A DNA stretch of 64,000 nucleotides from Octopus vulgaris (GCA_951406725.2 OX597818.1:25234001-25298000), one strand, 5' to 3'; counted from the first letter of the stretch, positions 41,506 through 44,739 are shown. The notes: a model not told the origin generated them from the letters alone. Numbers and translations are program-made.

Positions 41506-43826
41506 TGTATTATATGTGTCATCCAAGCAAATCATAAACTTCAATTCTTGGGTACTGTAAGAGATAACTATTTGTATCTCATTCAAAGTGCTGGTTTTCT
41601 GTCAGACTGCCAGAGATCTTACTACATTCTTGTGTATCCATTTTTGTATTGAGTTGTACTGACAGCACGGGTTTTGTTCTCTCTGTTATTTAGTACTTTA
41701 TATTATAGACCATACTTTCAGATTTAAAACTTTTTTGTGCAGATTTGTAGTAATTTGCAATGGGAATGTTAGAATCGACCTATAAAAACACCCTTATACA
41801 TAAATTTGTCCTGCTTTGACAAGTAGTTCATCTGTACTAGGAGTTTTCAGTATCAACCAAGAGTACAGCATCCTGTCAAAGGCCACCCATTATGTAGAAA
41901 AAAAGCTGAGTAGATTTTTCTTTTTGTGAACATTTTTATTGTTGCCTCACTAGGTTACGATATCAGATTGAAGAAATAGAAATGAAAATAGGATACAGGA
42001 ATACATTTGAAGTCTTAAACTGTAAGTTTTTATGAATTTTAATAGGAAAAGGCTTTTGTGTTAGTCTTTGTAAGGTCTACTCATTGTGTAGATTATGATT
42101 TTATTGTGTTCAAATAAAATACATCTCTAACTGGTTCAGTTGACTGCATAATGTCAAAATTACATGTAAAACTTGATAGCAAATTAGTAATTAGACTAAT
42201 CATATATTTCTTATATTGAAAGAACACAAAATACATAGTCACTATAAATAAATCATTAGCTTATGTTTTAGTGCCCTAACCTGTTACAGTGTGGATTAAA
42301 AGGATAAAGCTGTGTTGTAGTTTTTCATATTTATTAAAGAAGTTATAACCAATTAAGTATATGACAAAAATTAAAAAAAAAAAAGTTATTTTTAAAATGT
42401 TACCAAAGAAAATCAGGAGCACATTTACTACTTCAAAAATTGAAAGTGCATTCTGTTACAAAGGATTCAAGTTTAAATCTAAAATCTTAAACTTCAAAGT
42501 TTTAGTGTTTCTTTTATATTATTTTGATAAAAATAACCTTAAATGACCATTTTAAAAGAAATAAAGTAAACTAGATGTGCAACTTTTTCTAAATATTGTT
42601 TGAATATGAAATTTAAGTGAATGTAAATCAAAGATTACATTAAATAGAGTTCATATTGTACAAAATTTATTGAAGAAACATTGTATCCATAGAATAGGGA
42701 TTAAATCAAAAATCTTAATTCAAAATTTATTAACATAGTATTAAAATCAGAATTGCTTATATCAGATCCTCATTCCTAGAAGCTCTTAAAAATTGATTTG
42801 TTTTCTGTGCAAAAAATGTATCTTTGAAATTGAAAGTTTTTCAGTGCATTTACTCAGAGTTAGAAAAATGTATCGATTTTGGTTCCAGTTACTAAATAAT
42901 TGCTTCTGACTCTACAATCCTGGTCCTAATCATTGAATTAATCATTTATATTATTAAGGTATTATCCATACCATTGTTAACTACTGTAAAAGTTAGGGGA
43001 TAAGGAAGGATTAAAAATGATAGGTTAATAATGAAAGATCATTATTGTGTGGAAGGGTTTAAAAATGTGATTTATAGACTAGGCTTATAATTTAAATTGG
43101 GGCTTACCATGGATTTGACCATTGAAATGTATTTGGAACCGGATGATCAAATATTATCACAAAGTCTTGACTATGTTGGAAAGGAAGATTTTTGTAGATT
43201 ACAAAGGTCAGTGTAGCAAAGACAAACAAAGCAGGGAATCCTAGCCAATGCAGAGTGGCCATAGTTGATAAATAGGAAAAGAGTAGTATGTATCAACCCA
43301 TGACTGATTGAAAAATAGCTTTTCAAATGTCCTAAATATTAATGAAAAGCAAAACTGTAGACTCGTGAAGCAAAGTTCATGAACTACTTAAAGTTGACTC
43401 ATTTGATGAAGTCAAAAGTTTGTTGCCTAATCAGTGGTGGTGGTCATAGTGACAGTGAGTAGCTACAGTAAGAGAAGAATGGCAGAAGTTTAAGAGGTTA
43501 TTCTTTTGGTAACAAAACATTTCCTCTCTCAGCAGACTATGAAGCATGTTATAAGAACTATGATGCTCCTTGCATCCAACACCATACAACATGCACTTAA
43601 TGAATGTCTTCCAAAACTATCCCGTTCCTCTCCACCATGCACATAGACATGCCGACTATGAAAACCCTTCCATTCACTTGAAATCAACAAAGCCATTGGT
43701 CTTGACAATGACTTTACTGTTACCTTCAAATAAATTATTCCAGAGCTCACCAAACTCTTTAATTTCTGTGTGTGTGTGTATATATATATATAAAATCAAA
43801 ATTAGCAACAAGGATATCCAGAGGTA

Positions 43827-43915
43827 ATGCAGTATGATCGTTTCATGCAACACCATTTAATTGACCAATGCAATCATTATATCAATTTAAAATGCAGAGC
43901 AATCCTCAGCTGCAC
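43827..43915 (-). ncRNA. Minimal type-I hammerhead motif (GTA changed to ATA in stem III)
   Basis: Minus strand: TGCAG-CTGAGGA-long stem II-GAAAC-GATC-ATA-CTGCA. Confidence 0.68.
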
Positions 43916-44506
43916 AAAGACATAGAATTTAATTAAATTAGAACAGTAATAATTATACCTATAATCTCCAAGAAGTTAAGGAGATAGACAAAGAACATGC
44001 TGTCACCACTCCAGTTATCAAGAAGATATACATTGTTACAGACTCTGCCTGTCACTAATTTTTTTGTTTTTATCGGGTCAGTTTTAATTTATAGACTAGT
44101 TTATCAAATCCTTGTAGATCTAAGGCTGAGAGAACAGAGGACAGTATCTGTTAGGGGTAGGGCCGAAGGAGCAGACAGAAATCATAGTTGGTATAGTCAT
44201 AAAAATCAAGATTTATTAGAAGCAATATCATATGGTTTGGTAAAGGAAAGCTTAAAACAAGATGTTAGCTGACAATTAAGGGGGTTGCCCACCTGCAGAC
44301 CATTGATAATAGAACAGGGGAAGTCTTATGTAGTACTATAGTTAAATATTTTAAATAATGTTGCTATATTGTATACAGTTAAAGTTTAGGGTTATTCAGA
44401 GGATTATTAAGAAGAATATTATAACAAAAGGATAGAAATTTATGAATACTTTTGAGTATATACCAAAATCTTTTTACCACAATAGAGGTACCTATTCTAT
44501 GTCTTT

Positions 44507-44595
44507 GTGCAGCTGAGGATTGCTCTGCATTTTAAATTGATGTAATGATTGTGTTGGTCAATTAAATGGAGTTGCATGAAACGATCGTACTGCAT
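44507..44595 (+). ncRNA. Minimal type-I hammerhead ribozyme, intact core
   Basis: TGCAG-CTGAGGA (44513-44519), an ~58-nt imperfect stem II, GAAAC (44578-44582)-GATC-GTA (44587-44589), then CTGCA. Stem III is the palindrome ACGATCGT. Confidence 0.8.
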
Positions 44596-44739
44596 TACCT
44601 CTTAATATCCTTGTTGCTTATTTTGATTTTAATCACCTTACTTTGAAATTGTATGAATAATACTGTACAAAATCTGGTGCCTCAACTTAAGTACCAAATT
44701 CATCTGAATATATACACATACACGCACACACCATCCTGA

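Follow-up and report, generated by a model that had tools for sequence, protein, structure and literature searches.

What kind of element carries a hammerhead ribozyme in each arm of a long inverted repeat, with the two motifs facing outward? A locus near 44 kb in the window analysed here (the whole stretch of DNA, 64,000 nucleotides long) raises this question. An earlier note, made from the sequence, had taken the arms as TIRs that form the ends of a non-coding element, PLE-derived or retrozyme-like, with one ribozyme per strand. As discussed below, we consider it highly likely that a high-copy family of Penelope-like retroelements (PLEs), probably of the Hydra type, inserted here long ago, leaving two dead copies head to head in a genome that is probably that of an octopus.

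Anatomy of the locus and its hammerheads

Self-comparison of the 64-kb window reveals a gapless 138-nt inverted repeat between 43791-43928 and 44494-44631 (94.2% identity, E 2e-57), with no third copy of the arm in the window. The arms differ at 8 of their 138 nucleotides, three of these differences being of the CpG type, and the Jukes-Cantor distance is 0.06. Family-type sequence runs on for 78 nt beyond the right arm, to about 44709. Consequently, the arms are not the ends of the element, and the unit, 43791 to about 44709, is asymmetric. The inverted repeat described in the earlier note is thus real, whereas its role as the termini of the element does not hold. The locus consists of two 5′-truncated family copies positioned head to head within a TA microsatellite, 703 bp on the minus strand and 216 bp on the plus strand (Table 1). 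In the body of the longer copy, 208 of the 565 nt are T, and near 43947 about 13 nt are missing relative to many other copies of the family. At the ends of the element there are only TA-repeat matches, where a target-site duplication is indistinguishable from the microsatellite.

Table 1 Features of the head-to-head insertion, with positions counted from the first letter of the window
Feature	Positions	Strand	Basis
Left target flank, (TG)6(TA)6 microsatellite	43767..43790		Sequence; single-copy depth 44-52
Longer 5′-truncated copy, 703 bp: T-rich non-coding body, hammerhead, and tailless 3′ end	43791..44493	-	Depth high, declining away from the left arm (X2, X8); other copies fold back at a wide range of positions within it
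Left inverted-repeat arm, the 3′ end of the longer copy	43791..43928	-	Self-alignment
Left type-I hammerhead, core intact, stem III pair lost via G>A at 43835	43827..43915	-	Sequence, fold
"Spacer", the body of the longer copy upstream of its hammerhead	43929..44493	-	Contig mapping; protein searches without homology
8-nt palindrome AGGTACCT at the head-to-head junction	44486..44493		Sequence; likeness to PLE junction palindromes in the available part of PMC3846280
Shorter inverted 5′-truncated copy, 216 bp (right arm and tail), starting 13 nt before stem I	44494..44709	+	Alignment, contig mapping
Right type-I hammerhead: 6-bp stem I, CUGAGGA, U-U-closed 58-nt stem II, GAAAC, palindromic stem III, predicted cut after 44589	44507..44595	+	Sequence, fold
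One-sided 78-nt tail; many other copies extend it by about 15 nt up to (TA)n	44632..44709	+	Tail-bin depth, loose ends behind 44709
Right target flank, (TA)/(CA)-rich microsatellite	44710..44731		Sequence; depth down to 52-62 by 44947

In the right hammerhead, GTGCAG (44507-44512) pairs with CTGCAT (44590-44595) to form stem I, six pairs of which one is G-U. The core halves are CTGAGGA at 44513 and GAAAC at 44578, stem III is the palindrome ACGATCGT (44581-44588), and cleavage is predicted after A44589. The core halves are separated by 58 nt, which on their own adopt a bulged stem (-12.8 kcal/mol); at its base, stem II has a U-U mismatch that goes unmentioned in the earlier note. The full hammerhead consensus is present: C3 U4 G5 A6 N7 G8 A9, G12 A13 A14, A15.1-U16.1, H17, and three stems. 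Across the 64 kb, neither strand holds another full match to the descriptor, and shuffled sequence (100 shuffles, 30.3 kb) yielded on average 0.01 matches per shuffle. The left hammerhead has kept every core nucleotide, and the G>A change at 43835 breaks its C15.2-G16.2 pair in stem III. The outward type-I motif of each arm had therefore been read correctly in the earlier note, as had the intact right copy with its full core, stem I, and palindromic stem III. The distance from the start of the core to the 3′ termini of the family (see below) is 119 and 197 nt, which places the hammerhead near the 3′ end, in the pLTR position. The outward orientation needs no further explanation, as each copy simply bears the single 3′ hammerhead of the family. 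The only unusual feature of the ribozyme is its very long stem II. Rfam gave no hammerhead at E<=10 in 43600-44800, and no SECIS match there either, and for the window there is no hammerhead among the 150 matches listed out of 180. An AUGA..AA..GA string in stem II resembles a SECIS element; only 6-7 of 10 positions pair and the loop is short, and this candidate was rejected.

Folding of the element RNA was considered at three levels. The monomeric hammerhead is not the best local fold, lying 5.6 kcal/mol above it for the right copy and 9.2 kcal/mol for the left. The energy of a double-hammerhead dimer is -48.8 kcal/mol; two separate monomers reach -45.2, and the free cofold reaches -50.8. The dimer is thus energetically competitive, which agrees with a model in which the source-element RNA dimerises. 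When the whole unit is transcribed, the hammerhead fold lies 127.7 (plus) or 121.3 kcal/mol (minus) above the hairpin.

A second fold-back is found at 28192-28370 (to about 28560), with 179 bp, a 9-nt loop, and type-I hammerhead halves. Its plus arm carries CTGATGA and a damaged GAAAC, while its minus arm has GAAAC-AGCT-GTA together with CCGATGA. TA microsatellites flank this fold-back, an additional 190 nt or so is confined to its right side, and the whole looks like the same type of PLE insertion with a tail. The two fold-backs are unrelated in sequence (best E 0.55, not significant), as the earlier note had stated.

Family copies, transcripts, and the search for a coding partner

For the copy survey, public runs were mapped on 43300-45100 at 80% likeness. 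These were DNA contigs from three related organisms (X1, X2, and X8) and one raw RNA run, X23, from the same organism as X8; X1 and X2 come from two others. The element sequence is present, at least partly, in 20 of the 24 public runs listed (four organisms, 11 studies). In the contig mapping, the flanks of the locus are single-copy, with a depth of about 44-55. The summed depth is 2e5-9e5 over the arms, 1.6e4-1.8e5 over the spacer, and 1.9-2.7e5 over the tail bin (44642-44702). Relative to the flanks, this corresponds to ratios of about 16,000-28,000, 350-3,550, and 4,100-5,300, respectively, which are orders of magnitude, as summed depth overstates copy number. The arms are roughly 5-50 times deeper than the spacer, and we read these depths as thousands of short copies together with hundreds to a few thousand longer ones.

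The loose ends of the contigs define how copies end. Behind 44709, they were found in 51, 67, and 52 contigs (X1, X2, and X8), with about 15 further family letters followed by (TA)n, and other copies stop at 44627/44628 and lead directly into (AT)n or (AC)n (X2 and X23). These two sets of ends mean that the family has two 3′ termini, a near one used by the left copy and a far one nearly used by the right copy. Among the joints listed (15 of 144 in one table and 12 of 74 in a second) are 11 distinct fold-back junctions, which link points at 43832-44466 to points at 44494-44675. Each has a depth of 33-85, equal to one or two copies, and seven of the 11 begin within the spacer. A same-strand joint from the left arm to the spacer interior is not among the joints listed. 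The spacer is assigned to the minus-strand copy because of the fold-backs as listed and because depth declines from the left arm (X2 and X8). The joints listed include no empty insertion site; the contigs break at microsatellites.

Four fold-back junctions and two loose-end groups (11 and 19 contigs) cluster at 43999-44014, about 210 nt from the near 3′ terminus, which suggests that a subfamily boundary lies here or that reverse transcription tends to stop here. Among the loose ends listed before 44531, a sister subfamily reads CTGAAGA, with the free position 7 of the core altered, in 48-67 contigs per run (67, 65, and 48). Within the rows listed, this provides partial evidence on how well the core is conserved. 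DNA pattern scans gave no match in viral contigs and none in metagenome contigs (two scans). Three pattern matches in prokaryote genomes (0.5 expected) did not extend past 36 nt and were taken as chance.

The RNA run contributed 933 reads on the element, of which seven have at least 99% identity and 646 fall under 90%. Out of every 100 reads, 71 continue into unrelated sequence, and both directions are represented similarly. The roughly 6 in 100 of the run that were read, from another organism and from a library type that rarely shows ribozyme ends and is not made for circles, show neither flank reads nor a site at which ends accumulate. The element reads are probably passengers in other transcripts. 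Long hairpins in such read-through transcripts are more likely to be dsRNA substrates, for editing or silencing, than ribozymes. An excess of A>G/T>C differences between RNA and DNA in the organism of X8 and X23 was not significant (p=0.31).

None of the protein-level searches provided a partner for the family. Pfam returned nothing for any of the seven frames of the element. On the plus strand, a tail frame (44566-44709) of 48 codons with one TGA runs through the hammerhead and the tail; its protein search gave 44 candidates, none at E<=10. By analogy with other PLEs, this frame could be the start of the source ORF. A stop-poor minus-strand frame had no match in 1.84 billion proteins. The minus-strand frame at 44107-44325 has 73 codons and is broken only by three TGA, two of which (near 44197-44208 in plus-strand coordinates) occupy both cysteine positions of a PY...CxLCL-like string, where PLE endonucleases carry a C-terminal CxxC. 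This endonuclease-like motif, which was picked after looking, occurs in 0.14% of 5000 shuffles and in 0 of 90 control tiles. The protein search with this frame gave 27 candidates, none at E<=10, and a DNA scan of viral contigs for PLE endonuclease gave no match. Judged from its sequence, the frame may possibly be the decayed end of an endonuclease, or it may be due to chance. That it is the relic of a selenocysteine-reading endonuclease is a far less likely extension, to which we attach very little weight. Collectively, Pfam and the three protein searches linked no RT or GIY-YIG domain to the tail or to the 565-nt body. This T-rich stretch upstream of the hammerhead looks non-coding, which suggests two possible sources, an element whose untranslated end is long or a derivative that is non-autonomous.

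The window is animal DNA whose interspersed repeats resemble those of octopus in style. The surroundings of the locus are rich in TA/CA microsatellites, and kilobases of TA/TG/TATG simple repeat are present at 23000-27700 and 30250-33650, for which Rfam returned only spurious microRNA matches. Decayed LINE reverse-transcriptase frames occur at 7719-8657, 12060-12895, 29353-29973, and 46832-47386. The first of these has 817 relatives, and among the 120 of them listed the highest identity of a named match, 68%, is to an Octopus vulgaris protein. At 62500-63500 there is, by eye, what may be a mariner-like transposase remnant. The stretch at 34000-36000 is CpG-rich (observed/expected 0.84) between CpG-poor regions and is likely the promoter region of a host gene; the ratio falls to 0.1-0.3 beyond it. 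The drop in CpG from near 36 kb and weak T>A and G>C skews fit a plus-strand host gene body, which is thus possible. No host-gene exon was found by eye in 33.7-64 kb, and the host transcript to which the earlier note took the intact copy to be sense stays putative.

Origin of the insertion and the rival explanations

The element behaves as a PLE insertion and very probably is one, and its sequence suggests that it probably belongs to the Hydra clade. The PLE derivation proposed in the earlier note is supported, and the layout is that of inverted PLE insertions described before (PMC8557442, PMC4209133, and PMC3846280). In the mechanism that we favor, a PLE reverse transcriptase-endonuclease would nick the (TA)n target, and reverse transcription would begin at two positions of the element RNA, one tail length apart. 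The two cDNAs would stop early and become joined at the short palindrome. A self-priming fold-back is an alternative to the two-site start. The source element's RNA is where the hammerhead would matter, most likely in dimeric form via the palindromic stem III. At the present locus it would be a passenger; a read-through transcript would bury it in the 138-bp hairpin. Assuming an octopus host and arms that were initially identical, the distance of 0.06 gives an insertion age of about 8 My on a calibration of 0.09 for 25 My (PMC13282606). A more specific version, which we put forward tentatively and regard as rather doubtful, is that octopus-like genomes carry a PLE derivative, not described so far, that is highly abundant and non-autonomous and depends for its movement on a Hydra-type enzyme acting in trans. 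The 58-nt helix II insert of this derivative would evade Rfam and the published descriptors (one of which limits this spacer to 7-17 nt), and most of its thousands of copies would start near the 5′ edge of the ribozyme.

Several other origins have to be weighed against an inverted PLE insertion. Broken, inverted fragments of a tandem non-LTR retrozyme family, with circular RNA and head-to-tail units, would account for the type-I fold, the 2-bp stem III, and the U-U-closed stem II, in which the motif resembles axolotl HHR_Amex2 (PMC7229834), and such families have a proposed origin from PLE pLTRs (bioRxiv 10.64898/2026.07.22.740005). However, the window holds no tandem units and each strand has one hammerhead. 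Moreover, the best-supported 3′ loose ends (six rows among those listed) lead into (TA)n/(AC)n and not back into the family, and the linear family sequence spans at least 780 nt and has a single hammerhead, exceeding units of 170-400 nt. We regard this origin as improbable, and the term "retrozyme-like" does not suit a locus without tandem same-strand units. The core nucleotides kept in both arms, and the frequency of fold-back copies in the family, would also agree with a class of its own, made up of elements with two ribozymes, in which arm, spacer, and arm are amplified together via RNA cleavage on each strand. This is essentially what the earlier note had envisaged as a class of non-coding TIR elements with one ribozyme per strand, where arms and spacer would be conserved together. 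The junction positions vary between copies among the joints listed, however, showing that arms and spacer are not a fixed unit; a transcript of either strand has one ribozyme, buried by 127.7 and 121.3 kcal/mol; and a cut at 44589 would lose the terminal 120 nt that are present in the genomic copy. The layout is that of a described PLE inverted insertion, and a separate class appears very improbable.

Long inverted repeats around a non-coding spacer, with TA-rich flanks, are also what a non-autonomous DNA transposon (MITE) with 138-bp TIRs and a TA target would present, its hammerhead being inherited or incidental. Against this stand the 78 nt of family sequence beyond the right repeat, as a result of which the unit is not bounded by the repeats, the far greater depth of the arms than of the spacer, and the 11 different junctions among the joints listed, each in one or two copies. 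In addition, the hammerhead match is far beyond chance, and its core corresponds letter for letter to that of PLE hammerheads (PMC8557442). A MITE origin is already largely refuted and even less probable than a two-ribozyme class. The least probable of these explanations, and one we would hardly expect, is retention of the right hammerhead for cleavage of a host intron or nascent RNA. In its favor, this hammerhead is intact, and CpG depletion from near 36 kb with weak skews would fit a plus-strand gene body around it. With eight differences between the arms, though, an intact core on one side is unremarkable, and the fold energies indicate that the hairpin sequesters the ribozyme. The related proposal that the intact copy could cut intronic RNA on dimerisation is unlikely, because read-through on the plus strand would produce the antisense left arm before the right arm, with which it pairs, no same-strand partner ribozyme is present, and the part of X23 that was read (about 6 in 100, from another organism) has no flank reads and no pile-up of ends, including at 44589/44590.

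As a PLE insertion, the locus itself is an ordinary dead retroelement. Its wider meaning, a modest one, lies in the family. Such PLE insertions mimic MITEs and may end up catalogued as DNA transposons. Standard searches also overlook hammerheads whose helix II is long, which may lead to an undercount of ribozymes in cephalopod-type genomes. With its thousands of copies, its two 3′ termini, and its numerous independent fold-backs, the family could serve to test how PLEs form inverted copies and tails. If the reading as an abundant non-autonomous PLE is true, the family would constitute a large natural data set on the role of the PLE hammerhead and on the origin of inverted copies and tails.

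Comparison with known systems

Insertions of EN+ PLEs are known to comprise an inverted 5′-truncated copy beside the main copy, with inverted repeats around the unit, a one-sided tail of 30-40 bp, and (TA)n targets, and the formation of the inverted copies and tails is listed as unresolved (PMC8557442). In Penelope-13_HM, a hammerhead is present on each strand owing to an inverted 5′-truncated copy (PMC8557442). The present element resembles Penelope-13_HM and Penelope-1 to -8_HM in its core (ctgaNgaT...Tgaa-ac), in the tgc...gca at the opening of stem II, in the position of the hammerhead about 100-200 nt from the 3′ end, in the (TA)n target, and in the inverted copy (PMC8557442). The (TA)n insertion preference of the Hydra clade is seen both at the locus and at the loose ends of other copies. 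At the protein level, EN+ PLEs encode a telomerase-like RT and a GIY-YIG endonuclease, and the Hydra clade is distinguished by RWK, DKT, and CxCX5C motifs, a lack of CCHH, and its RT phylogeny. In the Hydra-clade table of the same source, 14 of the 25 families share ctgaNgaT...Tgaa with this element, and eight of the 25 also open stem II with tgc...gca, as it does. In contrast, the core halves are 58 nt apart here and 12-26 nt apart in these 25 families (own count from PMC8557442), the nearest span being that of about 54 nt in PLE-X1_sMoe from spike moss, which is marked non-canonical (PMC8557442). The tail, 78-95 nt here, is likewise longer than the published 30-40 nt (PMC8557442). The octopus families Hydra-1_Obim (hammerhead row) and Naiad_Obim (3′ end) have different sequences in the stretches compared (PMC8557442). 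Five short motifs of the element had no match in the available part of the PMC8557442 supplement, and a sixth occurred once, in an unrelated coding sequence.

Dual type-I hammerheads on opposite strands, 100-700 bp apart, were reported in truncated PLEs in 2014; they have a palindromic helix III and show weak, dimer-dependent cleavage (PMC4209133). These min-hammerheads and the present element have in common an extra nucleotide after A9, the palindromic helix III, and predicted dimer-only activity. Their helix II, however, has 4-8 bp and is usually closed by G10.1-C11.1, whereas that of the present element forms a long rod with bulges and U-U at its base (PMC4209133).

The Penelope families of Adineta vaga include 5′-truncated copies between inverted pLTRs of about 200 bp, with junction palindromes and an optional one-sided tail (PMC3846280). 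With these families and with Poseidon PAc, the element shares the inverted pLTR layout, the tail, the junction palindrome, and the AT-rich target (PMC3846280 and PMC11167929). The Adineta vaga tail encodes the start of an ORF (PMC3846280), while the protein search with the frame through the present tail gave no relatives. For Poseidon PAc, both target strands are cut and extended, and the tail corresponds to the distance between two RT start sites (PMC11167929). In vitro, this insertion does not need hammerhead cleavage, and no RNA ends were seen at the cleavage site (PMC11167929).

The axolotl retrozyme Rtz_353/HHR_Amex2 is also type-I and non-coding, with a 2-bp helix III capped by a tetraloop and a U-U at the base of helix II (PMC7229834). 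Retrozymes, which are argued to derive from PLE pLTRs (bioRxiv 10.64898/2026.07.22.740005), are head-to-tail tandem units of 170-400 nt expressed as circles (PMC7229834), in contrast to the present locus, where none of these features was seen. The family was not found in the literature searched, and the available part of the O. vulgaris repeat paper (PMC13282606) does not mention hammerheads; the supplement or the repeat library of that paper, Repbase, or Dfam may already contain the family. The type of insertion was already known, and what stands out here is the long helix II and the abundance of the family.
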